A stretch of DNA of 64,000 nt, taken from the NCBI GenBank assembly GCA_963663165.1, contig OY760175.1, positions 3,232,001 through 3,296,000 of the forward strand, read 5' to 3'. Within the stretch, counting starts at the first letter, position 1; each line of letters begins with the position of its first letter. The notes below the pieces were generated by a model. That model searched no databases, was not told the DNA's origin, and saw only the letters and a list, made by a program, of their open reading frames with translations. The DNA is from an uncultured Desulfospira sp. (GTDB lineage Bacteria > Desulfobacterota > Desulfobacteria > Desulfobacterales > Desulfobacteraceae). Shown piece by piece: positions 13,552-29,652 of this stretch. A program made the translations under genes and the position numbers.

Positions 13552-16500
13552 ATGCTTTCGTTTTTTGAGAAAAAAGATATTCCCCGAAAAAATAAAGCCC
13601 CTTCGGGGGGAACCAGACGGTCCGCATTTTGTGTTCCCTTGTTATGGCTTTTGTGTTTGATTAATCTTTGTGTTTTCACAGCGCCCCTGGTTCATGCCGG
13701 TGTATCCGGACCCGGATGGGCCAATGTCCGGGGCCAGGGGGTCACGCCTGAACAGGCAAAGGCATATTATGCACAAAAAAAAGCGCTATCCCTGGAAGCC
13801 ATGTCATTGCTTTCGGAAGAAGGATTGGCAACAGAGGCCACATCAGAAATTGTCGAATTGGCCCGGGGCCTGAACTACGAGCCCAAACTGATTTATGAGT
13901 ATGTGAAAAATCATGTGGACTATGTTCCCTATTTCGGATCGCTCAAAGGGGCCACCCTGACTTACCTTGACGGCTCCGGAAACGACTTTGACCAGGCATC
14001 GCTGATGATCTCTCTATTAAGGGCCAGCGGATATGAAGCCCAATATATTTACGGCACCATGGCCATCCCGGCCTGGGGGGCTGCCGGCCAAAAAGACATG
14101 CAGCACTGGCTGGGCGTCACTGCCGATAATATAGTCGCCGTTATCAATGTGGTCAATTCAATGCTGATAAACGGCGGCATTCCCGGAACCCCCGGCACAA
14201 CCTTTGAGATGGACCGGGTATGGGTCAGCGCCGTGATAGACGGGACCACTTATGTGTTTGATCCGGCGTTTAAGGTATATGAAACCGTTTCCGGAATAGA
14301 TCTTACAGACGCCATGGGATACGACCAGGCAGCGCTGCTTTCGGCTGCCGGCGGCACCCGGGGAACGGACTATATCCGGAATTTAAACGAATCCGCCTTA
14401 CGGACAAAACTGAACACTTACTCCGCCAGCTTATTCAACACCATCCGGGACAACACCCCCAACGCGCACATGGAGGAAGTCGTCGGCGGCAGGCAGATTG
14501 TTCCCGAGTATTCGGACGATCTTCCCACAAGTCTCGAGTTTACAGTCATAACTCAGGAAGATCCCTGGGATGAAATCCCGGATGAATACAGCCATACCAT
14601 CACTATCCGGCACGGTGGCATCGACATAACAAAAGATATAGCAAGCCTTGGGGGCAAACGGCTGTCTTTGACCTATCAGGATGCAGAAGGCAGCACAATG
14701 ACTGCTCTTTCAACAGATTCCCTTTTGTTCTTAACAAAAGCAGATACCGGGCTGTCGGCCGTCTCTATAGAGGGGCCGTCTTCGGTAGAAATGGGGCAGC
14801 CGGCCGACTCAACCCTGTCGCCGGATATACAGGTGACGGCTCCGGATATTGAGGGCGGCGGCATGATAAGCACCAAAGGGACGTCCAGCCAGAGTTTCGG
14901 GCGGATCTACCCGTCTTCTGTGGGATCAAGCTCGAGCTCGGTAACATGGGGGCCATCTGCTCCCAGCACCAATACGGTGACCATTCAACTTGTCGTAAGC
15001 CTGACAAGCAACCCCCAGAGTGCTTATACCATCACCGCCGGGTCGGGAACCCATAACCTGGCACCGGGAAAGGGTGTGAACGTTACGGTTAAATTTTCCA
15101 ACAGCGGACAGTCAGCGGGCACCAAAACCGGCCAACTGAGGTTTCAGTGGAAACATGGCGGGGCCGTTTTTCAAACCGACTATATCAACCTGACCGGCGT
15201 TGTGGCCAATGCGCCGGACATTTCCCTTGGAGGCATCAATTTCGGGCAGGCCATTTTGAACGATCCGCGCACGGCTACGGCCACACTGACGAACAACGGC
15301 TTAAAATATTTATCCCTGACAAGCAACATTGTATTATCAACAGGAAATACCGGCAGATTCCAGATCACATCCAATTACAGAACCGGAAACCTTGCCGCAG
15401 GCGCCACAAGAAATATGGGGGTTACGTATAAAGCAGATGTCCGGGGCTCACACGCTACAGGCATGGCACTCGCCTTCACCTACGACGAGTTGCCTTATAC
15501 CTGGACCTATTCCAATGTTCTGGCAGGAAGCACCCATTACGAACCTGACCTGACAGGGTCCTACAATCCGCCCTCCTGGCAGACATATATGGGGAACAGC
15601 AAATCCGGCAACTGCATTCTCAAAAATTCAGGAAGTTTAAACCTGTCTGTTACAAGCCTTGAAATTACCGGCACGGACGCAGCCCGGTTTGAACTTACAG
15701 GCAATACATCGGCTGGCACTCTCTCTTCCGGGCAGGAACGGGAAATTGAGGTTGAATACAAGGGAGACAGCGTGGGAAGCCATACGGCTTCCGTGCGGGT
15801 CTATTTTTCATATGACGGACGGGCAAGCTATGTTGACTTTTCCTTATCCGGCGAGACCCTTGCAACGCCATTGGCCCGGCTCTGGCTGGATGACACCCTG
15901 ATCGCAGAAGAGACCGCTCCGGTATCCGGGGACGACCTGGATACCATGTTCCTTACCATTACGCATCCTTATCCCGGAGAAGACGGGGATTTTGCCGATC
16001 AGGAAGACATTGAATACCCCATGAAGCGGGGCTCGAATTATTATACCATTATCTATGATTTTGGCGGCAGCCGGGATGGAAGGGTTCTTGAAAAACGCCA
16101 ACGGCAATTAAATACTTACCGCCAGTCCGGGTATGGGGATGGCTCCCGGGAGGTGATCACTGAAGCCCTTAATGTGATGGGCATGACCTGGATGCGGGAC
16201 ACCACGCTAAATGCAACACTGCTGGGAGAAATATCCGGTGTTTTGGGCACCTGGCACCACCGGTTCGGGGTGGTGGCCCAGGAGAGCGGGTATTATATTG
16301 ATGTCAAGGCCCAATCATGTTCCAGCACGTCAAGACACGGAGACGCCGGGGCTGAACAGGCGCATTTCAAGGCCATGAGCCATTTGGCCAGCGCCATGGA
16401 ACATGGGGTCCTGGAACAGATGCAGGTGGACAGCCCGGCGGTCTCGACCGTCAAGCTCTTTGCCCTCAGCAATGAAGCCGGAGATAAGATCTTTGAAGTC

Positions 16501-19500
16501 ACTTCCGATAACTATTCGGACATCGAATCTGAGCTTTCCAACTACAGCGACAAAGACCTGGCCACACTTCAGGCACTGGCAGCCGGCGGCAGCACCCTGA
16601 TCCTTCCGGCCAACGGCCGGATCGGCCTGGAAGCATGGGCCGGCAAAGCCTATATCGAATATGAAATTGAAGGTGACGGGGCCATGCACTGCGGCATGAT
16701 CATCGGCGGTGATTATTACGGCGGCTACAGCGTTTTAAAAGACCGGGCCGTTAACGCATATCAAACCGCAACAGCGGCCATTGCCCAAATATGGTCCTCA
16801 ATCACCGACTTTAAAATAGCCTCCACAGACCCGGTGGACATGGTCACCGGCACTTTTATGGCCAGCAATACCGATCTTGCCCTGGCCGGGGGCGCGGGCG
16901 GCCTGGCCTTTAAACGAAGCTATTTTGGGGCCAACCACCAGATGGACAGCATCCTTGGCTACGGCTGGTCTCACAACTGCGATCTGTATGCCCAGGTGCA
17001 TTCCAGCTCGCCCATGGGGCTTGGCACCCGCCTGCCCGCGGATGCAGCGGCCCTGATCACGGCATCGGTGGTGATCCTGGATCTCATGGCCGGTGATACG
17101 GATCTTGCGGACTGGATGGCCTGTGCCCTGACCGGCCAATGGGCCATGGACAACCTGACCGACAATGCCGTGAGCATCCACCTGGAATCCGATGTACTCA
17201 CCTATATCAGGCAGCCTGACGGCTCCTTTGGCCTGCCCCCGGGGGTGAATGCAAGGCTTTCCCTTGATTCGGGGGGGTACCGCCTGGATGACCGGTTCGA
17301 TAAAACCATCCTGTTCAATGGGGACAACAAAGTCAGCACCATCACCGATGCCGACGGCAACGCCGTCACATTCGCCTATTCCGGGGATAACCTTGCTTCG
17401 GTATCCGATGATTTCGGGCACAGCCTCACCTTTGCCTATTCCGGCGAAAAGCTCTCTTCGGTAACCGACTCCGCGGGAAGAAGTGTTTCCTTTAACTATA
17501 CCGGGGATAACCTGGCCACTTACACCGACCCGGAAAACAAGGCCTGGGTCTACGGGTATGACTCAGACCACCGGATCACCACCCTGGCCAACCCGGAAGG
17601 CATTACCACGGTCACCAATGCTTACGACAGCCTGGGCCGGGTCATGACCCAGACCGTGCCAAGGCAGTCCGGCACGGCAGGTTACAACCTTTACTTTACC
17701 GGATACCGGAACATTGAAGAAGACAGTGACGGCAACCAAACCATATACCACTACGACCGCCGCCAAAGGCTGATCGCCCTGGAAGACGCCCTGGGCAGCA
17801 AGACAAGCCATTCTTATGACGGCCAGAACCATGTCATCCAAACCACCGACCCCCGGGGCAACACCACCCTGTACGAATATGACGGCAGCAACAACCTTGT
17901 CATGTCAACCGACGCCCTGGGCTATGAGACCACCAATGTTTATGACGTGGATTTTCACTTAACGGATGTAACCGATCCCCTGGGCAATCTGGTCCACTAT
18001 AAGTTTGATGAAGAACACCACCTGGTCAACACCGCAGTATACCCGGAGTCCGGCCAGAGCATCGAAACATCTGCCACGTTTTACGCCAACGGCCTGCCCC
18101 ATATTTCAACCGACGCAAGGGGCATTGCCACCACCCTGACCTATGACGCTTACGGCAACCCTGCCGCCAGCCAGACCGCATCCGCCCCGGCCGTCACCTA
18201 CACTTATGACGGAACCGGGCTGATGACGTCCCTGACGGACCAGAAAAGCCAGACCACGGCATTTGCCTATGACAACCGGGGCCTATTAGAGACCCGGACC
18301 GATCCCCTGAGCAAATCCATGGTCCTGGCCTATACCGGTGACGGAAAAATCAGCACCATCACGGACAGGAACAACGATACGGTGACTTATGCTTATACGG
18401 ATTCAGGCAAGATCGGCACGGTCTCCTTCCCGGCCGGGACTCCCATCACATACACCTATGATAACCGGGACAACCTGGTTGCCATGGCGGACAGCACAGG
18501 CACCACCGCCTTTGCCTATGATGCGGTCAACCGGCTGGTTGCCCGGACCGACGCCAGAGGGTTCACCGCAGCATACACATACGATGAAGCCGGAAACCCG
18601 GCCACCCTGAGCTACCCGGACGGCAACACCGTCACCTACACCTATGATGAGCTCAACCGCCTTGCAACGGTCACAGACTGGCTGGGCCGGACCGCAGTAT
18701 ATGATTATGACGCTGCCGGCCGGCTCACCACGCTCACCCAGTTCAACGGAACCCGGGCCGATTACACCTATGACAACGCCAACCGGCTCACCGGCCTTTC
18801 CAACCTGGCCGAAACCGGCGGTGACGTCATTGCCTCCTATTCCTTTACCCTGGACGGCAACGGCAACCGGACCGGCGTCACCCAGGAGACTCCCTTAACG
18901 CTGAACCTGACCGCCGCCACCGTGGATTACACCGTGGGCAGCGCCAACCGCCTGGAAAGCGCCGGCACCGGCAGCTTTGCCTATGACGATGAAGGGCAGC
19001 TCATCTCCGCTTACGGCAGCACCCTCACCTTTGACTATGAACACCGGCTGACCGGCATTGCCGGTGAAACAACAAGCCAGTTCAAATACGACGGGGCCGG
19101 CAACCGCCTGGAAGCCGACCGCAACGGGACTGTTACCCGGTACATCTACGACGATTCGGGCAACCTCCTGGCCGAGGCGGACAGCAGCAACCAGATTACC
19201 CGGTACTACATTTACGGGGCAGGCCTCCTGGCCATGGTGGACACTGCCAACACCATGTACTGCTACCACTTTGACGCCACCGGCCACACCATTGCCATGA
19301 CAGACAATGCCAAAGCCATTGTCAACGCCTATGCCTATACCCCCTTCGGCATCCTCGCCAATCAAACCCAAACCATTGAACAGCCGTTCAAGTTCGTGGG
19401 CCAATACGGGGTCATGGCCGAAGACAACGGCTGGTATTATATGCGGGCCAGATATTATGACCCGGAAACCGGCCGGTTCATCTCGGAAGACCCGCTCGGA

Positions 19501-19950
19501 TTTGACGGCGGAGATGTTAACCTGTATGTTTATGCCTCAAATAATCCTGTTATGTTCATTGATCCGTTGGGATTGTGTACGGAATATAATTCAGGAACAC
19601 TTTTCCGTACGCTAGTTCCTGGGCAAATTGCATGGGATAATGCTATGACTTCATTTAACCAAGGAGATTATACTTCTGCTGGTCTATCTACAGTTGAAAT
19701 GCTTGGAGAGCAAGTGTTGACAGTATTAACATTAGGTGAAAGCCAGGCAATTGCTCAATCAAGCAAACAAGCTACAGATGCTGCATTTAAGTATGCTTTT
19801 GGGAAAGGGGGTCTTCTTAACAGTAACAGATACCTTCGATTAGGTGTCGGTCGAAAAGGAGGGGAAAAAGTATTTCGTGCTAGTGGGCAGTGGATAAATA
19901 AAATTTCAAAATCAGGCCACATTGATCTTTTTAAAATGGGGAAATTATAG
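13552..19950 (+). CDS. Rhs/YD-repeat polymorphic toxin with signal peptide, transglutaminase-like domain, Ig-like domains and C-terminal toxin
   Basis: DPVDMVTG core start, many YDxxGRL repeats, YYMRARYYDPETGRFISEDPLG...NPVMFIDPLGL autoproteolysis motif, low-GC C-terminus. Confidence 0.92.
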   Translation: MLSFFEKKDIPRKNKAPSGGTRRSAFCVPLLWLLCLINLCVFTAPLVHAGVSGPGWANVRGQGVTPEQAKAYYAQKKALSLEAMSLLSEEGLATEATSEIVELARGLNYEPKLIYEYVKNHVDYVPYFGSLKGATLTYLDGSGNDFDQASLMISLLRASGYEAQYIYGTMAIPAWGAAGQKDMQHWLGVTADNIVAVINVVNSMLINGGIPGTPGTTFEMDRVWVSAVIDGTTYVFDPAFKVYETVSGIDLTDAMGYDQAALLSAAGGTRGTDYIRNLNESALRTKLNTYSASLFNTIRDNTPNAHMEEVVGGRQIVPEYSDDLPTSLEFTVITQEDPWDEIPDEYSHTITIRHGGIDITKDIASLGGKRLSLTYQDAEGSTMTALSTDSLLFLTKADTGLSAVSIEGPSSVEMGQPADSTLSPDIQVTAPDIEGGGMISTKGTSSQSFGRIYPSSVGSSSSSVTWGPSAPSTNTVTIQLVVSLTSNPQSAYTITAGSGTHNLAPGKGVNVTVKFSNSGQSAGTKTGQLRFQWKHGGAVFQTDYINLTGVVANAPDISLGGINFGQAILNDPRTATATLTNNGLKYLSLTSNIVLSTGNTGRFQITSNYRTGNLAAGATRNMGVTYKADVRGSHATGMALAFTYDELPYTWTYSNVLAGSTHYEPDLTGSYNPPSWQTYMGNSKSGNCILKNSGSLNLSVTSLEITGTDAARFELTGNTSAGTLSSGQEREIEVEYKGDSVGSHTASVRVYFSYDGRASYVDFSLSGETLATPLARLWLDDTLIAEETAPVSGDDLDTMFLTITHPYPGEDGDFADQEDIEYPMKRGSNYYTIIYDFGGSRDGRVLEKRQRQLNTYRQSGYGDGSREVITEALNVMGMTWMRDTTLNATLLGEISGVLGTWHHRFGVVAQESGYYIDVKAQSCSSTSRHGDAGAEQAHFKAMSHLASAMEHGVLEQMQVDSPAVSTVKLFALSNEAGDKIFEVTSDNYSDIESELSNYSDKDLATLQALAAGGSTLILPANGRIGLEAWAGKAYIEYEIEGDGAMHCGMIIGGDYYGGYSVLKDRAVNAYQTATAAIAQIWSSITDFKIASTDPVDMVTGTFMASNTDLALAGGAGGLAFKRSYFGANHQMDSILGYGWSHNCDLYAQVHSSSPMGLGTRLPADAAALITASVVILDLMAGDTDLADWMACALTGQWAMDNLTDNAVSIHLESDVLTYIRQPDGSFGLPPGVNARLSLDSGGYRLDDRFDKTILFNGDNKVSTITDADGNAVTFAYSGDNLASVSDDFGHSLTFAYSGEKLSSVTDSAGRSVSFNYTGDNLATYTDPENKAWVYGYDSDHRITTLANPEGITTVTNAYDSLGRVMTQTVPRQSGTAGYNLYFTGYRNIEEDSDGNQTIYHYDRRQRLIALEDALGSKTSHSYDGQNHVIQTTDPRGNTTLYEYDGSNNLVMSTDALGYETTNVYDVDFHLTDVTDPLGNLVHYKFDEEHHLVNTAVYPESGQSIETSATFYANGLPHISTDARGIATTLTYDAYGNPAASQTASAPAVTYTYDGTGLMTSLTDQKSQTTAFAYDNRGLLETRTDPLSKSMVLAYTGDGKISTITDRNNDTVTYAYTDSGKIGTVSFPAGTPITYTYDNRDNLVAMADSTGTTAFAYDAVNRLVARTDARGFTAAYTYDEAGNPATLSYPDGNTVTYTYDELNRLATVTDWLGRTAVYDYDAAGRLTTLTQFNGTRADYTYDNANRLTGLSNLAETGGDVIASYSFTLDGNGNRTGVTQETPLTLNLTAATVDYTVGSANRLESAGTGSFAYDDEGQLISAYGSTLTFDYEHRLTGIAGETTSQFKYDGAGNRLEADRNGTVTRYIYDDSGNLLAEADSSNQITRYYIYGAGLLAMVDTANTMYCYHFDATGHTIAMTDNAKAIVNAYAYTPFGILANQTQTIEQPFKFVGQYGVMAEDNGWYYMRARYYDPETGRFISEDPLGFDGGDVNLYVYASNNPVMFIDPLGLCTEYNSGTLFRTLVPGQIAWDNAMTSFNQGDYTSAGLSTVEMLGEQVLTVLTLGESQAIAQSSKQATDAAFKYAFGKGGLLNSNRYLRLGVGRKGGEKVFRASGQWINKISKSGHIDLFKMGKL

Positions 19951-19970
19951 ATTGTCTATGTAGAATTATC

Positions 19971-20249
19971 ATGAAAAAACTTACAACCTTTCAAATAAAA
20001 TGCGAAGATAAGGCGATGGAACTCTTATCCCGACATGGTATAGTTCTTCAAAACAGAAATTTAGGTGGAGAAAGCGAAATTTATATCCATGCTCGATTAA
20101 AGGATACGGAAATTTGGATTTATGAAGATGAAGCAATGATTTACGGGAATGGAAAAGACATCCGTTTTGAGTCCCCAGACTATGATACGGAGGATCAATT
20201 GATTGAAGCCTTTATTTCTGGTTTAAAATCTGTGCTTAACAGTGATTAA
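19971..20249 (+). CDS. Putative immunity protein for Rhs CT1
   Basis: 92-aa acidic, low-GC ORF 20 bp after the toxin stop. Confidence 0.7.
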   Translation: MKKLTTFQIKCEDKAMELLSRHGIVLQNRNLGGESEIYIHARLKDTEIWIYEDEAMIYGNGKDIRFESPDYDTEDQLIEAFISGLKSVLNSD

Positions 20250-20296
20250 GGAAAATACTTATAAATTTCACCCCGATTCAGGAACCTGGCAAAAGG

Positions 20297-20365
20297 CCAT
20301 GGGGCCAGGTTTGACATTCTGACATACTAACACCGGGTCTTGATCGCTGATCAAGACCCGGTGTT
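20297..20365. repeat. Repeat unit ATGGGGYCAGGYTTGACATT plus palindrome AACACCGGGTCTTGATC-GCT-GATCAAGACCCGGTGTT
   Basis: Second, truncated copy at 25441-25513. Confidence 0.75.
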
Positions 20366-20669
20366 ATTTTTAACTGCCTTAAAAGTCCCTTGAAGGGCAC
20401 CATGTTGAGCGAGGCGAATAAATCACCGTTGAGCAGAGCGAATAAGGCAGGACGCAAAGTAGACCCCTTTGAAAAAGTGGGCCTACTTTGCATGTCCTGT
20501 CACCCTAACGCTCTATCTTTTTATGGCTTAATCTGATTTTTTATATTTGATATGTGGCGGGGTCGGGCCGAGCTAATAGAGTGAAATATATGAAAATACC
20601 ATTAAAAGATATCCTTAAAACAGGCTTAAGTTGACGTTTTTGGGTGCAAAATGAACGTTATAAGAAAGT

Positions 20670-22804
20670 GGCCGGAACCATGTGATCAAACCACCGCCCC
20701 CCGGGGCAACACCACCTTGTACGAATATGACGGCAGCAACAACCTTGTCATGTCAACCGACGCCCTGGGCTATGAGACCACCAATGTTTATGACGTGGAT
20801 TTTCACTTAACGGATGTAACCGATCCCCTGGGCAATCTGGTCCACTATAAGTTTGATGAAGAACACCACCTGGTCAACACCGCAGTATACCCGGAGTCCG
20901 GCCAGAGCATCGAAACATCTGCCACGTTTTACGCCAACGGCCTGCCCCATATTTCAACCGACGGCAGGGGCATTGCCACCACCCTGACCTATGACGCTTA
21001 CGGCAACCCTGCCGCCAGCCAGACCGCATCCGCCCCGGCCGTCACCTACACTTATGACGGAACCGGGCTGATGACGTCCCTGACGGACCAGAAAAGCCAG
21101 ACCACGGCATTTGCCTATGACAACCGGGGCCTATTAGAGACCCGGACCGATCCCCTGAGCAAATCCATGGTCCTGGCCTATACCGGTGACGGAAAAATCA
21201 GCACCATCACGGACAGGAACAACGATACGGTGACTTATGCCTATACGGATTCAGGCAAGATCGGCACGGTCTCCTTCCCGGCCGGGACTCCCATCACATA
21301 CACCTATGATAACCGGGACAACCTGGTTGCCATGGCGGACAGCACAGGCACCACCGCCTTTGCCTATGATGCGGTCAACCGGCTGGTTGCCCGGACCGAC
21401 GCCAGAGGGTTCACCGCAGCATACACATACGATGAAGCCGGAAACCCGGCCACCCTGACCTACCCGGACGGCAACACCGTCACCTACACCTATGATGAGC
21501 TCAACCGCCTTGCAACGGTCACAGACTGGCTGGGCCGGACCGCAGTATATGATTATGACGCTGCCGGCCGGCTAACCACGCTCACCCAGTTCAACGGAAC
21601 CCGGGCCGATTACACCTATGACAACGCCAACCGGCTCACCGGCCTTTCCAACCTGGCCGAAACCGGCGGTGACGTCATTGCCTCCTATTCCTTTACCCTG
21701 GACGGCAACGGCAACCGGACCGGCGTCACCCAGGAGACTCCCTTAACGCGGAACCTGACCGCCGCCACCGTGGATTACACCGTGGGCAGCGCCAACCGCC
21801 TGGAAAGCGCCGGCACCGACAGCTTTGCCTATGACGATGAAGGGCAGCTCATCTCCGCTTACGGCAGCACCCTCACCTTTGACTATGAACACCGGCTGAC
21901 CGGCATTGCCGGTGAAACAACAAGCCAGTTCAAATACGACGGGGCCGGCAACCGCATAGAGGCCGACCGCAACGGCGTGATTACCCGGTATATCTACGAT
22001 GCTTCGGGCAACCTCCTGGCCGAGGCTGACTCCGAAAACCAGATTACCCGGTACTACATTTACGGGGCAGGCCTCCTGGCCATGGTGGACACTGCCAACA
22101 CCATGTACTGCTACCACTTTGACGCCACCGGCCACACCATTGCCATGACAGACAATGCCAAAGCCATTGTCAACGCCTATGCCTATACCCCCTTCGGCAT
22201 CCTCGCCAATCAAACCCAAACTATTGAACAGCCGTTCAAGTTCGTGGGCCAATACGGGGTCATGGCCGAATACAACGGCTGGTATTATATGCGGGCCAGA
22301 TATTATGACCCGGAAACCGGCCGGTTCATCTCGGAAGACCCCTTGGGATTTGACGGTGGGGATATCAACCTGTATGCGTACGCCTCAGGGAATCCACTGA
22401 CCTTCATTGACCCCAATGGGCTGTGTATTAAAGCTGCATGGGATACGACAACGAATACTATTTTACCGGGAGCAGGGAAAGCCTTTAGTGAGGCAGGAAA
22501 AACTTTATGGTCGGAAAAAGAAAAAATTGTAGCCGGTGTGGGCAAAGGACTGTATGAAGGAGAAAAAGCTATCCCTACAATATGGAATGATGGTGGTCCA
22601 CTTGCGAAAGGTGTCTTATCTTTTGCTGGATTAACAGTAATCTTACCAGCAAGCTATGTCATGCCTGCTTCAGTGGCCGAATTTGCAGGTGGATATTTAG
22701 AATATCATTCATTGCCAGCAGCTACAGGTCCTGGCATTGGAGGTTTTGTTACAGGTAATATTGTACCGTATATAGACTCTCGATTAGACCCCAAAACATG
22801 GTGA
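20670..22804 (+). pseudogene. Orphan Rhs core plus alternative C-terminal toxin (CT2)
   Basis: Near-identical to about 17820-19570 at offset 2848, diverging after DPNGL; no signal peptide or N-terminal domains; ATG 20651 lies outside the homologous frame. Confidence 0.88.
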
Positions 22805-22811
22805 AAAAATA

Positions 22812-23132
22812 ATGAACTTTTGGCGTGTATACATAGGGCTTGGTTTTATAATTTGGGGTATTTTTGTTAATAGAACTGGATACATTGCTAAATATGGATA
22901 CCAGGTTCCTCCAGAGGTTGGAATTTTTATTATTTTTTGTGGTTTAATATTTTTATTTATAGGTTTTTTACCAACAAAGAAGATTAAAAAACATAAAAAA
23001 TCTTTATTCTGTCCACACTGTAAAAAAAAATATCCTAAAATACATATTCAAATCCCAGTTTGTCCGATATGTAATGGCAAATTAATTGAGTATAGAAATT
23101 TGAAAGACAATGATGCCGGCAGGCAAAAGTAA
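22812..23132 (+). CDS. Putative immunity protein (2 TM helices plus CxxC...CxxC)
   Basis: 7 bp after the CT2 stop; two hydrophobic segments; CPHC and CPIC; low GC. Confidence 0.7.
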   Translation: MNFWRVYIGLGFIIWGIFVNRTGYIAKYGYQVPPEVGIFIIFCGLIFLFIGFLPTKKIKKHKKSLFCPHCKKKYPKIHIQIPVCPICNGKLIEYRNLKDNDAGRQK

Positions 23133-23180
23133 TGGGAAAAAGTGGGACGCCCTTAACTTTTGATTCCTGTGAAGCAACTA

Positions 23181-23250
23181 GATAAATGGATAAATGGGGT
23201 CAGAGTAAAATTATTTTTATGACGTTCGATTTTACCCTGATCCCAAATCC
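23181..23250. repeat. Palindromic repeat R1 (degenerate right arm)
   Basis: GATAAATGGATAAATGGGGTCAGAGTAAAATTA ... ATTTTACCCTGATCCCA. Confidence 0.75.
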
Positions 23251-23274
23251 GGTTTGACCGAGTGTTCCAGTTCA

Positions 23275-23375
23275 CCTACCCCCAAACCGTCACCGACGGC
23301 AGGGGTATTGTTACAACCTTTACCTATGACAATTACGGTAACCCGGACACCACCCAGACAGCCAATGCCCCGGCC
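23275..23375 (+). pseudogene. Diverged Rhs core fragment
   Basis: Encodes PQTVTDGRGIVTTFTYDNYGNPDTTQTANAPA, homologous to PHISTDARGIATTLTYDAYGNPAASQTASAPA at about 18095-18195. Confidence 0.8.
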
Positions 23376-23392
23376 ATTGACAATGGACAATG

Positions 23393-23468
23393 AATGGGGT
23401 CAGAGTAAAATTATTTTAAAATTCCCAATTTTTGGGCTACGTTTAATTTTACTCTGACCCCAAAATTC
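23393..23468. repeat. Palindromic repeat R2 (68-bp core 23395-23462)
   Basis: Perfect 19-bp IR TGGGGTCAGAGTAAAATTA around a 30-bp spacer identical in R2-R5. Confidence 0.9.
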
Positions 23469-23500
23469 GACTCCGCGGGAAGAGGCGTTTCCTTTAACTA

Positions 23501-25377
23501 GTGCCTGACCGGAAATTGGAACCATCATATTTTCCAGGGGTATCTGGGCTGAAATTCGTTTGAAGTTTCTGTTGTGATATGAATTACTTGTTGCTTTTTA
23601 CTAATCACTATGTTAATCTAACCCTATAAAATTATATAGGATTTATGTTTTGTGAGACAAGCCAATAGTAATTCAAACTTCAACATTCCATCAGAACTTC
23701 GAGGTCGTTTTGCGTAAAATTTTTGAACTACAGATGACATTCGGGCAGACCCCTATCGATCAAATTAAAATTGATATGAGAGCCAGGGATGAAATCCCCA
23801 AACTTCTTTTGGGACTCCAACATATCTATTGCGACCAGAGTCTTCGACAAAAAGTTTTTGATATCCTCACGGACATGATCCCAGAAAGTACCGATTCTAA
23901 AAATGGACGTCCCGGTATGGACCTGTGGAAGATCCTTGTAATGGGCGTCATTCGGCTCAATTGCAATTGGGATTATGATAAACTCCAGGAAATGGTGAAC
24001 AACCACAAAACAATAAGGCAGATGCTGGGGCATGGCATGATGGACAATGATATCGCCTACCCCCTTCAGACCCTGAAAGATAATGTCAGGCTTATGACCC
24101 CAGATATTCTTGAAAAATCAACACTCTGGTTGTGCAAGAAGGCCATAAACTTCTGATGAAAAAAAACTTCGGACGATGGAGCCTTGATTGGGCGGTGTGA
24201 TTCATTCGTTGTAGAAACCAATGTTCATTATCCCACAGATATCAACCTGCTTTTTGATGCAGTCCGAAAAATGATTCAAATTGCCGCTTATTATCAGCCA
24301 GGACATTGGAACGAGTATGTGGCGGCAATCAGCGTATAATATTAAAGCATTTAAAAAGCTTTATCGAATAGTCCAGCGTTTGAAACATTCCACATCAAAG
24401 GATGAAAAGAAAAAGGCCAAAAGAGTCCAGCAAATTATGGATGCCCATACAGCATATATCAAGCTTGCTGAAAAATATATTCAAAAGGCGCGATTGACCG
24501 TGGAAATGATACCGGCATCCGATATTATATGTGCAGCCCGAGCTGAAGAATTACAAACATATATCAACTACGCACTTTGGCAAATTGATTTGATCAAACG
24601 CCGGGTGTTACAGGATGAAAAGATCCCCCATGAAGACAAGATTTTTTCGATTTTCGAACCCCACACGGAGTGGATTTCAAAAGGCAAGGCCGGTGTTCCC
24701 CAGGAATTGGGCTTGCGGGTATGTATCCTGGAGGACCAATATGGCTTTATCCTGCACCACCGGGTGATGGAGAAAGAAACCGATGATAAAGTCGCCGTTG
24801 CGATGGTAACATTGGCACAAAGCAAATTTTCTGATCTCAAAGGATGCAGTTTTGATAAAGGGTTTTACTCTCCAGGCAACAAAAAGGACCTGAAGGGCAG
24901 ATTGGATATTTTGGTGCTTCCGAAAAAAGGCAGATGCAACAAGGCGGAATATGAAGAAGAAACAGCGGAAGATTTCATTCGTTTTAAAAGAAAACATTCA
25001 GCGGTGGAATCTGCCATAAACGGACTGGAAAATCATGGTCTTGACAGATGCCCGGATCATGGCATTCAAGGGTTTAAGAGGTATGTGAGCCTGTCGGTTT
25101 TGGCAAGAAATCTCCAGATCATCGGGCATCACATACAACAAAAGGGATTAAAAAAGCTGCAAGGGTCTGAACAGCGCAAAGCAGCTTAAAACAGGCCATT
25201 GCTTAAAAAAAACACGGCAAACACTACAGTTGCGTCCGGAAAAGGAGAAAGTTGCCGAAAACCGGCAGAGATGGAAGCATTTCTCCCGGTTTGTGATGAC
25301 AGGAACAACAAAGATTTAAGGTTTTGTCAAACATCGACCCCCTGAAAATTTCAAAATCGGGGTTTCCGGTCAGGCAC
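23501..25377 (+). mobile_element. ISNCY (ISDol1-like) insertion sequence with frameshifted transposase, inserted in an Rhs remnant
   Basis: 15-bp TIR GTGCCTGACCGGAAA; 6-bp TSD TAACTA (boundary ambiguous by 1-2 bp); tnp split into 23710-24156 and 24281-25189 (KIFSIFEPHTEWISKGKAG, SFDKGFYS, HSAVESAIN); flanks rejoin to an rhs fragment matching about 17467-17555. Confidence 0.85.
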
Positions 25378-25512
25378 TAACTATACCGGAGACAACCTGG
25401 CCACTTACACAGACCCGGAAAACAAGGTCTGGACCTATGGCCATGGGGTCAGGCTTGACATTTTGACATTTAGGTAAAAGCAACACCGGGTCTTGATCGC
25501 TGATCAAGACCC

Positions 25513-25659
25513 GATAAATGATAAATGGGGTCAGAGTAAAATTATTTCGGATAAATGGGGTCAGAGTAAAATTATTTCGGATAAATGGGGTCAGAGTAAA
25601 ATTATTTTAAAATTCCCAATTTTTGGGCTACGTTTAATTTTACTCTGACCCCAAAATTC
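25513..25659. repeat. Palindromic repeat R3 with three tandem 30-bp left arms
   Basis: (ATAAATGGGGTCAGAGTAAAATTATTTCGG)x2 followed by the full element. Confidence 0.9.
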
Positions 25660-25660
25660 G

Positions 25661-25822
25661 GGATTAGTTGTTGGTCCCGGGGATAATATTTTTGGTTTTA
25701 ATGTTGGAATAGTTGTTGGAGCCAGCGTTGGCCTTCCTATAGAGACTTCAATCTCAAAGAATACGACTTGGGCTACAGGTGCCTCTAATACTACAAGCGG
25801 TTCTACTGCCTGCTTGAAGTGA
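25661..25822 (+). pseudogene. Truncated toxin C-terminus (CT3 remnant)
   Basis: GLVVGPGDNIFGFNVGIVVGASVGLPIETSISKNTTWATG...CLK-stop begins right at the R3 end and precedes an immunity-like ORF. Confidence 0.55.
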
Positions 25823-25868
25823 TATTGTATTTTTAAAAATTTAATGATCTAATTTTTAACGTGCCATT

Positions 25869-26183
25869 ATGGAAAACACTACCAACAAAGCGAAAAACGA
25901 ACTTCGTATTGCTTTTAAAAAACGTCGAATAGGCTTTCTGATAATATTGTCTTTTATTCCTATAGGATCACTAATTGTTGAGGTTGGCAAATCTTCTATT
26001 TGGGTAGGAATATTTATTTTTACATATCTACTTTTTATTGGTTATTTTCTTTCCAGAGTTTTATTGTACAGGTGTCCTCGTTGCAAAAATATCTTTCTTG
26101 GGCCTTCTTCAAGAATTAAATTTGTAACAAATAGATGCTATTATTGCGGTCTTAGTTTAGAAGAAGATAATCCGAAAAAATGA
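25869..26183 (+). CDS. Putative orphan immunity protein (2 TM helices plus CxxC...CxxC)
   Basis: Two hydrophobic segments, CPRC and CYYC, low GC, same architecture as 22812-23132. Confidence 0.65.
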   Translation: MENTTNKAKNELRIAFKKRRIGFLIILSFIPIGSLIVEVGKSSIWVGIFIFTYLLFIGYFLSRVLLYRCPRCKNIFLGPSSRIKFVTNRCYYCGLSLEEDNPKK

Positions 26184-26228
26184 ATACCACCAGTAAACTG
26201 GTGGTTTCATGAGGCCCCCCTAAAGGTG

Positions 26229-26322
26229 GATAAATGGGGTCGGATAAATGGGGTCAGAGTAAAATTATTTTAAAATTCCCAATTTTTGGGCTACGTTTAA
26301 TTTTACTCTGACCCCAAAACTC
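26229..26322. repeat. Palindromic repeat R4
   Basis: GATAAATGGGGTC stutter, then the full 68-bp core. Confidence 0.9.
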
Positions 26323-27103
26323 AGAAGAAGGTCGCCAAAGCCAAGGTAAAAAAAAATTCCTGAAACAGACATCATTTTTGAATATGTGCATAGGACAAAC
26401 CAACTAGCCGATGAAACAGATGGCGTTTTACGTATCTCAATGGACGCAAAAGCCACTATTAAAATAGGGCCTTATTCCCGAGGCGGATATAGTCGTTGCA
26501 ATCTTAAAGCGGCGGACCATGATTTTAAACCCGATTCCCTTTTGAAACTTTTCGGTATCAACATACCTGCTCTGGATGAAAATTATATGTACTTCACTGA
26601 AAGCAACATCACCTCTGATTTCATGATTGATGCGCTGGAATCACTCTGGCCTTCTTTGAACGCAAGATTCGCCCCACATACACTGGTGATCAATCTTGAT
26701 AATGGGCCGGAAAATAGTAGCCGAAGGAGCCAATTCATTAGTCGCCTCGTGGACTTTGCCAAATCAGCATTTGTAAATATTAGTTTGGTGTACTATCCCC
26801 CGTACCACAGTAAATACAACCCAATAGAGCGAGTTTGGGGTGTTTTGGAAAATCATTGGAAAGGCGAATTGCTGAACAAAATTGAAAAGGTTCTCGGTCT
26901 ATGTCGAACAATGACATGGAAAGGAGAAAATCCTGTCGTCAAATTAATCAAAGGTGTTTACCCGACAGGGGTACGTTTGGTCAAGTCCGCCGTGAATAAT
27001 ATAGAAAACAAAATTATTCGGATTCCAGGGATTGAAAAATGGGCTGTTGATATTCCATGCTATGAGGAATGAATTGTGGGTTTTAATTTTACCACATCCC
27101 TTA
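26323..27103 (+). mobile_element. 5'-truncated ISAzo13-family transposase remnant
   Basis: RISMDAKA, DHDF, INLDNGPEN, YYPPYHSKYNPIER motifs; begins abruptly at the R4 end. Confidence 0.8.
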
Positions 27104-27155
27104 TTGTCTTAACGCTGTCTTGTATCCTAACCGGTATTTTATAAGAGTAAAAGAA

Positions 27156-27370
27156 GATAAATGAGATAAATGGATAAATGGGGTCAGAGTAAAATTATTT
27201 TAGATAAATGGCGATAAATGGGGTCAGAGTAAAATTATTTTAGATAAATGGGGTCAGAGTAAAATTATTTTAAAATTCCCAATTTTTGGGCTACGTTTAA
27301 TTTTACTCTGACCCCAAAATTCTAAAATTCCAGACCCCAAAATTCCAATTTTACTCTGACCCCAAAATTC
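27156..27370. repeat. Palindromic repeat cluster R5 with multiple left-arm and right-arm stutters
   Basis: Three GGGGTCAGAGTAAAATTATTT arms plus partial GATAAAT prefixes; repeated GACCCCAAAATTC suffixes. Confidence 0.9.
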
Positions 27371-27868
27371 CGTGGTGCCGATGACCATGAAAAACATGCC
27401 ACAGGCCTTTTTTGATAAAAAACCATGTACTTGAGCTGCTCTCCAACTGGATGGCAATATCCCAGATAATGATGGTGCTCGATCAGGCTATTGAACAATG
27501 CCTCATTGGGGGTATTTTTAACCAGTTCAATATCAAGGGGTGTGAGCTCATTAAGACCGGCCGTCACCCGGGTTTGATCTATCTGTATTTTTGCCGATTT
27601 TTTACGGTTCAAAAATGGATTATTGGGAGTCTGTTTTCTGGCTGGAAGGGGTGATATGCCCCTGCCTGTGAAGTGCCAGCATGTATCCTCTGGCAATCAT
27701 GTCACGAAGATTACCGTTGAGCTGAACCCAGTTCCATTCCTCGCACAGCATTTTTGACAATGCCAAACGGCTGTCTTGGGGGTTATCCTTTATTAACCGG
27801 TTTATGAAGGCAATATCATCCCGGGTTGCCGTCCTGCCTCTATATGTAAGTACGATGTCATCTGTCAT
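27371..27868 (-). pseudogene. DUF4338-like gene, frameshifted and 3'-truncated
   Basis: LSKMLCEEWNW..NG, HHYLGY..PVGEQLKY motifs; extra base near 27650. Confidence 0.7.
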
Positions 27869-27913
27869 GGCAACGTCTTATAATAGATTTTGGGTTCGAA
27901 CGTACGAAAAAAA

Positions 27914-28267
27914 TTATGCAGACAGCTTTTTCCATGCCGGGGCTGCCCTGGTATTAAACGGATCACCGTTCCATAGCAGCATTTGAAGTTCATGCGCATC
28001 AAGGGTTTTGCATCCGGTTGCGTTTACCGGCCACCATTTAAAACGGCCTTGGGATAACCGCTTCTGGCATAACCAGAAACCTTGAGAGTCATAGCATAAT
28101 ACCTTTATGGCTGTTCGTCTCCGGTTGATAAATACAAACAGGTATCCGGAAAAAGGATCGGAATGGAGTATCTTCCGGCATAACCCGGCCAGGCCGTCAA
28201 TGCCTTTCCTGAAATCTACCGGATCAACAGCCAGTAAGATCTTCATATGAGGTGTGATCTGGATCAT
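27914..28267 (-). CDS. tnpB: IS66 accessory protein TnpB
   Basis: PVDFRKGIDGL, LFVFINRRRTAIKVL, GFWLCQKRL..GRF.W. Confidence 0.92.
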   Translation of the reverse strand: MIQITPHMKILLAVDPVDFRKGIDGLAGLCRKILHSDPFSGYLFVFINRRRTAIKVLCYDSQGFWLCQKRLSQGRFKWWPVNATGCKTLDAHELQMLLWNGDPFNTRAAPAWKKLSA

Positions 28268-28677
28268 GGCAGTCCCTCAAGAAAATATCTGCCAAGATCA
28301 ATGGCCGCGGGATCTGCCCGCCCCCGGAAGCACATGCGCAGCTTTACTCCGGATGGTTTTTCCATCTCTATGATGCAATCCGTGGCGGCAAATGGCGGTT
28401 CCAGTTCAACAAATGTGGCTGGCTCATCCTCAATGGGTTGTATGGCAACCGGCGGGCTTGCTGTGATGTGTAATTTCAGGTCTGTATAATTGAGCCTTAA
28501 AGTCCGGGCAATCTTGTTTATACTCAGGTTATAAGAATAAAAAAGATTTACAGCCGCAGACCATAATGAATCCGGAATACATCCGATTTTTGTCCGCGTT
28601 TCTCTCCAGGCTGCAAACTGTTGTGCCACTTTTTCAAGTGCTGAATACTGTTTGCCTGTCAGCTTTGTTTTATTCAT
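28264..28677 (-). CDS. IS66 Orf1/TnpA-like HTH protein
   Basis: FAAWR...IPDSLWSAAV, FVEL; 4-bp overlap with tnpB. Confidence 0.7.
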   Translation of the reverse strand: MNKTKLTGKQYSALEKVAQQFAAWRETRTKIGCIPDSLWSAAVNLFYSYNLSINKIARTLRLNYTDLKLHITASPPVAIQPIEDEPATFVELEPPFAATDCIIEMEKPSGVKLRMCFRGRADPAAIDLGRYFLEGLP

Positions 28678-28815
28678 GGGTCCCTCCTTAAAATGTTGAT
28701 GGGACCGTTATATCAGCTGCGAAAACTTAATTCATACAGGCTTACCGAAGGGACACAATGGAACTAGAGTGATACAGGTGCATAAGCACACTCTTTCAAT
28801 GAAAATATGTTCCAT

Positions 28816-29652
28816 TCAAGGAAACGTAACCTGGGTCCCGGCATTGTTAAGGAAAAAACGGTCCCCAAAGGATTGCGCCAGAAATGATGTGGCCCGGAAC
28901 CCGGTACAATGGGACACGCCTATTTTTTTCAGGCCGATATTTTTGAGCTCGGCCGCGGTGTGTTTGAGCCTTTCGTCTGTGGCCGGGGCCAGATGAGTTC
29001 CGCCCACCACCCCGTATACACGAGATTCACCGGTTAACTTCTGGGCATGGCGTATGGTATTGATAATGCCGCGGTGGGCACACCCTGAAACAATGACCAG
29101 CCCCTGGGCGGTTCTTACAATCAGCGACAGATCATCTGGCACGGTGTCAGGAATCATAGTCCCCTGGTCTTTGACCTGAAGGTTCGGCTCAATCTGTTCA
29201 TAGGGGATATTCATTGTGACCACGCCGGTGGTCATGATTTCTTCTGAAAATTTCACCGGTGCTTCGCTATAGGTAAAAGAGGCCCCATAACCGATGAGCT
29301 CTTGGCGGGTAAAAGGGATACCAATATAGGTGATCTTATTCTCATTGGGGAACCGGGTGTACTTGAGGTCCCAAATGGCCGGATGGGCAACAACCTCTTT
29401 TTCCCTGGTTCTTTTAAGCACTTCTCTAAGGCCGCCGGTATGATCCCCATGCCCATGGCTTAAAACGATTTTATCAATCGTTGAAAGGTCAATACCCAGT
29501 TTATCGGCGTTCCTTACTGCCGCATCTTCGGCACCCGTATCGAACAATATTTTATGGTGTTCGGTTTCCACCAGAATGCTCAATCCCCATTCGGCCATGA
29601 AGCCTGGCTTGGCAGCGGTATTTTCGCTAAGCGTGGTCAATCTGAGTGCCAT
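28816..29652 (-). CDS. MBL-fold metallo-hydrolase
   Basis: EWGLS, LFDTG, SHGHGDHTGG, GCAHRG, GGTHL, SHCTG. Confidence 0.88.
   Translation of the reverse strand: MALRLTTLSENTAAKPGFMAEWGLSILVETEHHKILFDTGAEDAAVRNADKLGIDLSTIDKIVLSHGHGDHTGGLREVLKRTREKEVVAHPAIWDLKYTRFPNENKITYIGIPFTRQELIGYGASFTYSEAPVKFSEEIMTTGVVTMNIPYEQIEPNLQVKDQGTMIPDTVPDDLSLIVRTAQGLVIVSGCAHRGIINTIRHAQKLTGESRVYGVVGGTHLAPATDERLKHTAAELKNIGLKKIGVSHCTGFRATSFLAQSFGDRFFLNNAGTQVTFP

Follow-up and report, generated by a model that had tools for sequence, protein, structure and literature searches.

How did a group of palindromic repeats come to stand directly beside genes that are cut in mid-sequence, and do such repeats capture the DNA next to them or remove it? 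The question is raised by five repeat clusters, R1 to R5, at positions 23181-27371 of a 64,000-nt stretch (hereafter, the window) of the genome of an uncultured Desulfospira sp. (contig OY760175.1, positions 3,232,001 to 3,296,000), downstream of a main rhs gene. An earlier interpretation drawn from the letters of the window alone (the sequence-only reading) had seen in them a candidate system for capturing and shuffling DNA, by which toxin tips and immunity genes would be banked. We found that the same repeat arm bounds a TIRtron, that is, a RAYT-like transposase gene flanked by terminal inverted repeats (TIRs), located 230 kb away. On balance, and with moderate confidence, we favor an explanation in which R1-R5 are hairpins made of TIR dimers of this element, the stuttered partial copies at their ends are likely scars of nicking, extension and resealing, and the cuts at their right ends are likely deletions started by a nick rather than events of capture.

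Results

The arm of the repeats is a 19-mer, TGGGGTCAGAGTAAAATTA, with 14 copies in the window (13 exact and one with a single mismatch), all of them within 23195-27364, while none of 100 shuffled versions of the window contained any match. The 66-nt body of the dimers, from GGGG to CCCC, is 100% identical in R2, R3, R4 and R5, which all lie in the same orientation; R1, a relative of these, has diverged: its loop measures 13 nt and its right arm is degenerate. As single-stranded DNA, the dimer is predicted to fold into a hairpin with a 19-bp stem (-20.8 kcal/mol, z = -6.8). Folding requires the dimer; the 19-nt arm alone has no internal palindrome and no GTAG. Direct repeats were found flanking none of the five units, and an Rfam search of 19500-29000 gave nothing at threshold, the sole sub-threshold match being MIR7504 on the R5 palindrome (30.7 bits vs a gathering score of 83). 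The description of five palindromic clusters, with a spacer common to R2-R5 and no target duplications, is thus borne out. The arm had also been held to be restricted to this 4-kb stretch, which is not the case: at no more than one mismatch, it has 29 matches in the 6.74-Mb genome. It is the dimer variant of R2-R5 that has no copies elsewhere in the genome, its 30-nt spacer occurring four times, always at the array locus.

R1 (23181-23250) opens with an 8-nt tip copy, GATAAATG (23181-23188), followed by the diverged TIR dimer, and R2 (23379-23468) with a 7-nt copy, GACAATG (23379-23385), followed by the 66-nt dimer and a right tip AAAATTC. In R3 (25513-25659), GATAAAT and two 30-nt units (a 28-nt prefix plus CG) that reach 25579 precede the 66-nt dimer with its tips, and R4 (26229-26323) consists of GATAAATGGGGTC plus G (26229-26242) and the full dimer, with a right tip AAAACTC and one extra A. 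R5 (27156-27371) displays five left-tip prefix units (8+A, 8, 30, 9+C and 30 nt; 27156-27242), the full dimer and three right-tip prefix units (27323-27371). Contigs of sequencing run X4 matched the assembly with no differences at R1 (23100-23217) and at the right end of R5 (27293-27401).

Two arms in inverted orientation, at 3,023,527 (+) and 3,024,298 (-) of the same genome, bracket a 772-bp unit with a Y1 transposase gene, upstream of the array. Its 234-codon open frame (P0001) carries an HVH motif and YIELNP and scored 54.8 bits (cut-off 23) against Pfam PF01797 (Y1_Tnp), the only Pfam family matched at E <= 0.01; no helix-turn-helix (HTH) domain was thus detected by Pfam, and the C-terminal extension matches no family. 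Against NCBIfam NF047646 (REP_Tyr_transpos) the score was 74.8 bits (cut-off 80), with a query lacking the frameshifted N-terminus discussed below, and against the IS200 equivalog NF033573 it was 24.5 bits, below the cut-off of 55; the match to E. coli TnpArep (PDB 4er8) had an E value of 0.009. The start of the TIR, GGGGTCAG, fits the motif GGGGWSAS. Since the arm is the TIR of this Y1-encoding element and fits that motif, R1-R5 are, as judged from sequence, TIR dimers of the TIRtron, analogous to REPINs. The genome carries two full copies of the element plus one left-end fragment, the second copy (4,947,520-4,950,175) being split by the same DDE insertion sequence (IS) that lies in the window at 23499-25379.

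It is known from Di Nocera, De Gregorio and Rocco (2013, PMC3733652, main text) that TIRtrons are RAYT-like genes flanked by TIRs, that their enzymes are called TIRYTs, and that the TIRs share GGGGWSAS and are found as single copies, dimers and clusters. In the main text of Quentin et al. (2018, PMC6006769), TIRYTs correspond to subclass 2.1 of the TnpA-Y1 proteins; class 2 is recognized by an HUH motif plus a catalytic Tyr in a Y---NP context, and subclass 2.1 by a C-terminal HTH domain (Bac_DnaA_C, HTH_23 or HTH_28). The element described here is of the TIRtron kind: a RAYT-like Y1 gene lies between long TIRs that start with GGGGWSAS, with single, dimer and cluster copies scattered here too; HVH and YIELNP agree with the HUH and Y---NP signature; and the gene is bracketed by TIRs rather than by REP hairpins, as it also is in two other genomes (G002 and G018), where intact orthologous open reading frames (ORFs) of 235-240 aa lie between the same TIRs. 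It may depart from that description in its C-terminus, Pfam finding no HTH domain in the protein, and differs in being present twice plus one fragment. It does not fit IS200/IS605 elements: the ends here are a perfect inverted repeat instead of subterminal hairpins without TIRs, and the protein remains below the IS200 equivalog cut-off. For the REPIN-RAYT system, Bertels and Rainey reportedly described in 2011 how two inverted repeat copies make up a non-autonomous hairpin of about 70 nt that multiplies in the genome. Inverted copies of a transposase-flanking repeat form a hairpin dimer here as well, but the arms are not self-palindromic REPs and lack the GTAG tag, there is more than one copy of the transposase gene, and the identical TIR is found in several phyla instead of being species-specific.

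In fact, the 18-mer of the TIR was present in 25 of the 101 genomes sampled from the family (8 of 19 genera), and exact copies were found in Gamma- and Betaproteobacteria, Desulfobacterota and a Balneola metagenome-assembled genome (at least 131 stretches). At many of the cross-phylum loci listed, transposase homologues of 50-84% identity lie no more than 400 nt from the exact 18-mer, as in Arenicella, Psychrosphaera, Methylophilaceae and Desulfobacter records. The attribution of the palindromes to a RAYT-type Y1/HUH enzyme, which the sequence-only reading had made by resemblance, is therefore supported by the transposase gene found between the same inverted arms 230 kb upstream and by its homologues beside the identical 18-mer in other phyla. 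Its remark that the window holds no such enzyme is also correct, with no PF01797 gene in the window and 14 matches elsewhere in the genome. Four other RAYT-like/TIRYT loci of this genome (the 4834496, 4888309, 4421637 and 4426374 regions of G000:C1) have unrelated TIRs of their own, e.g. ATCATAGGGGTCAAGTCTCTCC and GAATTCCGGGGACACG.

The nested partial arm copies noticed earlier at the left arms and at the right of R5 were confirmed as 5'-anchored prefixes of tip plus arm. These stutter units, 6-50 nt long, read on the GGGGTCAGAG strand, extend inward to a variable degree from a common start that is mostly 7 nt outside GGGG, and are present only outside the element ends; on the inner side, they tend to stop 1-2, 6-7 or 10 nt into the arm. 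A parse for such prefixes, which left out ends less than 150 nt from a locus edge and the outer copies of a stack, was positive for 12 of the 18 innermost ends in this genome, for 19 of 100 ends in an unselected cross-phylum sample and for 21 of 40 ends at chosen family loci, a set that is biased because its loci were picked for closely spaced hits. The same parse shifted 100 nt further out gave one, none and one positive, respectively. Similarly, the tip 8-mer recurred outside 6 of 18 ends in this genome, 15 of 41 at the family loci and 15 of 100 in the cross-phylum sample, against 0, 0 and 3 for the reversed 8-mer and 0, 1 and 0 for the tip 8-mer inside the element.

The read data, which consist of short unitig contigs of seven runs, include contigs from two studies that match with no differences the left end of R1, the right end of R5 and both stutters flanking the TIRtron. 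Each of the four TIRYT loci with unrelated TIRs also stutters, with stacked partial tip copies, and in relatives (L042 and L141, for example) some units are followed by 13-21 nt of unrelated sequence. Cumulative skew was lowest at 3.99 Mb and highest at 0.75 Mb; among the plus-strand ends of this replichore 8 of 9 had stutter, and among the minus-strand ends 3 of 6, numbers too small for a conclusion.

With regard to the neighboring genes, all five right flanks are truncated, whereas on the left four of five dimers adjoin the natural end of a gene or a terminator, so that the claim that right ends adjoin sequences cut mid-way holds throughout. Some positions needed adjustment. The right tip of R1 meets an rhs YD-repeat fragment that is cut at both ends (23250-23393, +), with a 78.6% DNA match between 23292-23375 and 20957-21040; its start, formerly placed at 23275, is at about 23250, directly at the tip. 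At R2, the junction falls at the homologue of position 17466 in the main rhs gene and opens a second rhs fragment (23468-25440, +; blastn 93.9% and 88.5% to main-gene 17466-17555), which is split by a DDE_Tnp_1 IS (23499-25379, +; read contigs cover 23499-25379) with at least 10 near-identical genomic copies. R3 is followed by what is left of an Rhs C-terminal toxin domain, its last 53 codons (25661-25822, +), which match the C-terminus of P0002 with 89% identity and 100% query coverage, P0002 being a full form of 136 aa that carries the DPLGLW core-end motif; the tail is devoid of the rhs core and of about 75 aa of the ~125-aa toxin domain, and bears no likeness to the C-terminus of the neighboring rhs orphan.

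The right tip of R4 meets an internal point of an ISAzo13-family IS, of which the 3' part of about 780 nt is left (26324-27104, +; Pfam DDE_Tnp_ISAZ013, profile positions 85-306 of 308) and the 5' part of about 500-560 nt, as measured against an intact copy, is missing. The piece is 99.7% identical to more than 20 genomic copies that run on upstream, and contigs start at 26324; the earlier identification of a cut ISAzo13 IS stands, with its start moved there from 26323. Finally, at the right tip of R5 stands a truncated IS66-type element (27372-28677, -; Pfam DruA E 1.4e-8, TnpB_IS66 E 2.9e-30), a second copy of which, at genome positions 1865929-1866856, extends beyond the junction. The DruA/DUF4338-like N-terminal fragment at 27325-27696 (-) is part of this IS66-type element, with TnpB_IS66 at 27917-28267.

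The link of the repeat to truncation points holds not only in the window but also at another rhs locus of this genome and in a congener. At the second locus (1.22-1.25 Mb), TIR-bearing repeats adjoin 5'-cut rhs genes, and in the congener (G012) the same dimer adjoins a 5'-cut rhs orphan. Moreover, a stuttered TIR dimer at G012:C1:331600-332000 (L203) corresponds in position to 12.3 kb of this genome (3514040-3526335), a segment that contains about 4000 codons of a 5231-codon rhs gene. Alignment of G012 with the window at 20250-20720 disclosed a complex 355-bp insertion with a cut right arm and no clean empty site. Because the flanks are remnants and the polarity is the same elsewhere, we read the cuts as end-adjacent deletions and not as capture.

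A general link of the repeat to Rhs was considered and discarded. Rhs-like flanks were seen at 1 of 112 repeat loci outside the genus, or 2 of 120 in other genomes when eight loci of the congener are included, the two being L086 (Candidatus Electrothrix marina) and L202 (G012). In L086, a TIR dimer lies between Rhs-coding pieces that match around residues 1367 and 1763 of an Rhs protein, which represents either a single rhs gene, the repeat marking an internal gap of about 400 codons, or the border of an orphan module. Within this genome, TIR copies are found in 2 of about 9 rhs loci, and a related D/R repeat has 7 of its 17 hits near rhs loci, five in one locus and three identical.

The rest of the array starts with the main rhs gene (13552-19950, +; 2132 aa; Pfam RHS_repeat E 3.4e-64, DUF6531), followed by a 5'-truncated orphan rhs module (20651-22804, +; 717 aa; RHS_repeat E 9.1e-53) and a small membrane/zinc-ribbon gene (22812-23132, +; Pfam DUF2614 E 4.7e-5) for which position alone suggests an immunity role. 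A second small gene of this sort, intact and in the immunity position (25869-26183, +), has a sub-threshold Zn_ribbon_3 match and a weak likeness to 22812-23129 (E 0.047). Rhs orphan arrays, according to what Poole et al. are said to have described in 2011, consist of a main rhs gene and then 5'-truncated rhs-CT/immunity modules. The order is the same here, with an rhs gene of full length, followed by 5'-truncated rhs-CT and small downstream genes, but the module borders are transposase-end dimers, and two modules are cut down to no core homology or to a toxin tail only.

Several other features were observed. The DDE_Tnp_1 IS of the window differs by three single-base indels (24113, 24158 and 24288) from the IS contigs of three isolate runs (X2, X4 and X7), and its transposase frame is spread over three ORFs, which indicates that either this copy has decayed or the assembly retains homopolymer errors. 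A GGGGTCAGGCTTGACATTTTGACA stretch ending in the palindrome GGGTCTTGATCGCTGATCAAGACCC occurs twice in the array (25439-25512 and 20295-20375), each time after a module and just before a repeat, and related copies exist at several rhs loci of the congener. Directly upstream of the orphan rhs at 20651, a second repeat family, GGGGTCGGGCC...TAAAACAGGCTTAAG, is represented by a diverged copy at 20554-20650; the 'D' elements of this family (912991, 1225455, 1245781 and 1246283) are joined to a AGGGTCAGAGTAAAATTA arm, and one GGGGTCGGGCC-family repeat also follows the giant rhs gene, at 3514031. At G000:C1:1242220-1242812, the TIRtron left end and the first seven transposase codons (MARLQRI) are fused in frame to an rhs fragment, so that the start codon of the transposon heads an orphan Rhs piece in a 182-codon ORF.

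Discussion

Y1 transposases cut single strands, hold the 5' phosphate and leave a 3'-OH, and in the model of BIME amplification by E. coli TnpAREP presented in Figure 7B of Ton-Hoang et al. (2012, PMC3333891) a host polymerase extends the 3'-OH, the new 3'-OH attacks the Tyr-5'P linkage and a unit is added from the nick. The sequence-only reading had proposed repeated nicking and re-initiation at the repeat ends, and this part of it is consistent both with the strictly 5'-anchored stutter and with that model. We suggest that the enzyme would nick 5' of the tip and, as Y1 enzymes do, stay on the 5' phosphate. If the free 3'-OH of the flank were extended before resealing, a prefix copy would be added; if it were lost or resected before resealing, the DNA next to the tip would be deleted. 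With a nick at the outer edge of the tip, extension would produce what is observed, copies with a common start at the nick and ragged ends. There are two differences from the BIME model as figured: whole units are added there after a second site-specific cleavage, whereas the units found here are prefixes with ragged ends, 6-50 nt long and frequently carrying 1-3 additional nucleotides, and an apparent deletion counterpart exists in the present case. A more specific version, which we advance tentatively and regard as possible rather than probable, is that one and the same TIRYT nick can lead either to stutter or to deletion beside it, the scars marking a cleavage site about 7 nt outside GGGG together with the strand and the polarity of 5' attachment, and that end-dimers are directional deletion hot spots that prune rhs toxin arrays.

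A number of observations weigh against this explanation. The part assigned to the enzyme is deduced from footprints in the DNA. Compared with the intact orthologues, both local transposase genes have a 1-nt frameshift at about codon 17, and one of the two is also split by an IS; the frameshift is real, as contigs of four runs show no indel against the assembly in this region. Programmed frameshifting was considered as a rescue and rejected, as there is no plausible slippery site at the lesion and use of an upstream A AAA AAT site would replace the conserved IPIHIIQ segment. With its local cognate gene out of frame, the array is probably a fossil, or else served in trans. In addition, kilobase deletions by resection and resealing are speculative, and recombination from dimer to dimer could yield similar junctions. 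No common target motif was found among the three comparable truncation junctions, of which the IS junction alone has a TIR-tip-like stretch, AATAAATTGGGT, about 15 nt upstream, and at genome position 1242220 the break lies inside the element, at codon 7 of the transposase gene, and not at the tip. The one to three untemplated nucleotides after 38 of 86 units are not predicted by the simple model. Lastly, the unitigs end within the repeats, which leaves the 30-nt unit counts of R3 and R5 as the assembly gives them.

The alternative that fares best is ordinary homologous recombination between directly repeated, identical 66-nt dimers inserted in genes, with the transposase taking no part in the deletions. 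Identical direct repeats are good RecA substrates, and R2-R5 are 100% identical and lie in one orientation. Nevertheless, such recombination predicts cut genes on both sides of a dimer, and the cuts in the array are on the right in five of five cases while the left flank is natural in four of five; it would also need many earlier insertions in coding DNA, and the dimer variant occurs only at this locus. We consider it unlikely, if still the strongest competitor. IS26 and other ISs are known to cause adjacent deletions and to form arrays in one orientation. The present array resembles such arrays in its identical copies, direct orientation, lack of target duplications and a truncated gene beside each copy, but IS26 is moved by a DDE enzyme acting on double-stranded DNA, whereas the 66-nt element here is a non-autonomous hairpin belonging to a single-strand Y1 system.

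Capture and shuffling, with re-initiation at repeat ends copying or transferring neighboring DNA so that toxin tips and immunity genes accumulate as a usable bank, much as integrons, IS91 or Helitrons would do, seems improbable to us. The dimers do stand in direct orientation between unrelated segments, their variant is amplified only locally, TIRYT-type repeats lie at module borders in two rhs loci, and the 13-21 nt of unrelated sequence after some units in L042 and L141 mean that template switching may occur. Against this, the segments between dimers are non-functional remnants, namely the 53-aa toxin tail without core homology and cut multicopy ISs, no segment is duplicated from a donor site with its dimer or found elsewhere in the genome with one, Rhs flanks are rare at the repeat loci of other genomes as given above, and the transposase gene is broken; the bank of toxin tips is accordingly not supported, and deletion beside the ends is the simpler account of the pattern. 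That replication slippage or faulty assembly at an AT-rich palindrome produced the stutters, with no connection to the transposase, is very improbable, for although two of the R3 units are identical 30-mers including the CG filler (possibly a simple tandem duplication) and unitigs cannot confirm unit numbers, units of 6-50 nt with a constant 5' start and only outside the ends recur both in the read contigs of two studies and in assemblies made independently for several phyla, and TIRYT families with unrelated TIRs show the same pattern.

Conclusions

Returning to nick-started scars and deletions at TIR dimers, both the stutter with its polarity and the truncations next to the ends are, within the reach of our literature searches, undescribed footprints of the TIRYT family. 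The main texts of PMC3733652, where the word 'duplication' is absent, and PMC6006769, where 'tandem' is absent, make no mention of partial or tandem tip copies or of truncated flanks. In the literature searched, neither the arm sequence nor anything relevant joining RAYT/REPIN with Rhs was found, and there was no description of an activity, cleavage site or biological effect of TIRYT enzymes. According to the main text of the second article (Quentin et al. 2018), TIRYT-type (subclass 2.1) Y1 enzymes are present in about 15% of the strains sampled.

A footprint that fixes the place and strand of enzyme action would amount to a directly testable biochemical prediction. It also carries a warning for annotation, in that 'cassette arrays' bounded by such palindromes need not be integron-like capture systems and, on the explanation preferred here, are not. 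End-dimers would reshape the DNA next to them, and in this organism a polymorphic-toxin array appears to have been cut down with its orphan immunity-type genes left intact. If the reading of one nick with two outcomes is true, these scars report on an HUH enzyme family that spans several phyla.

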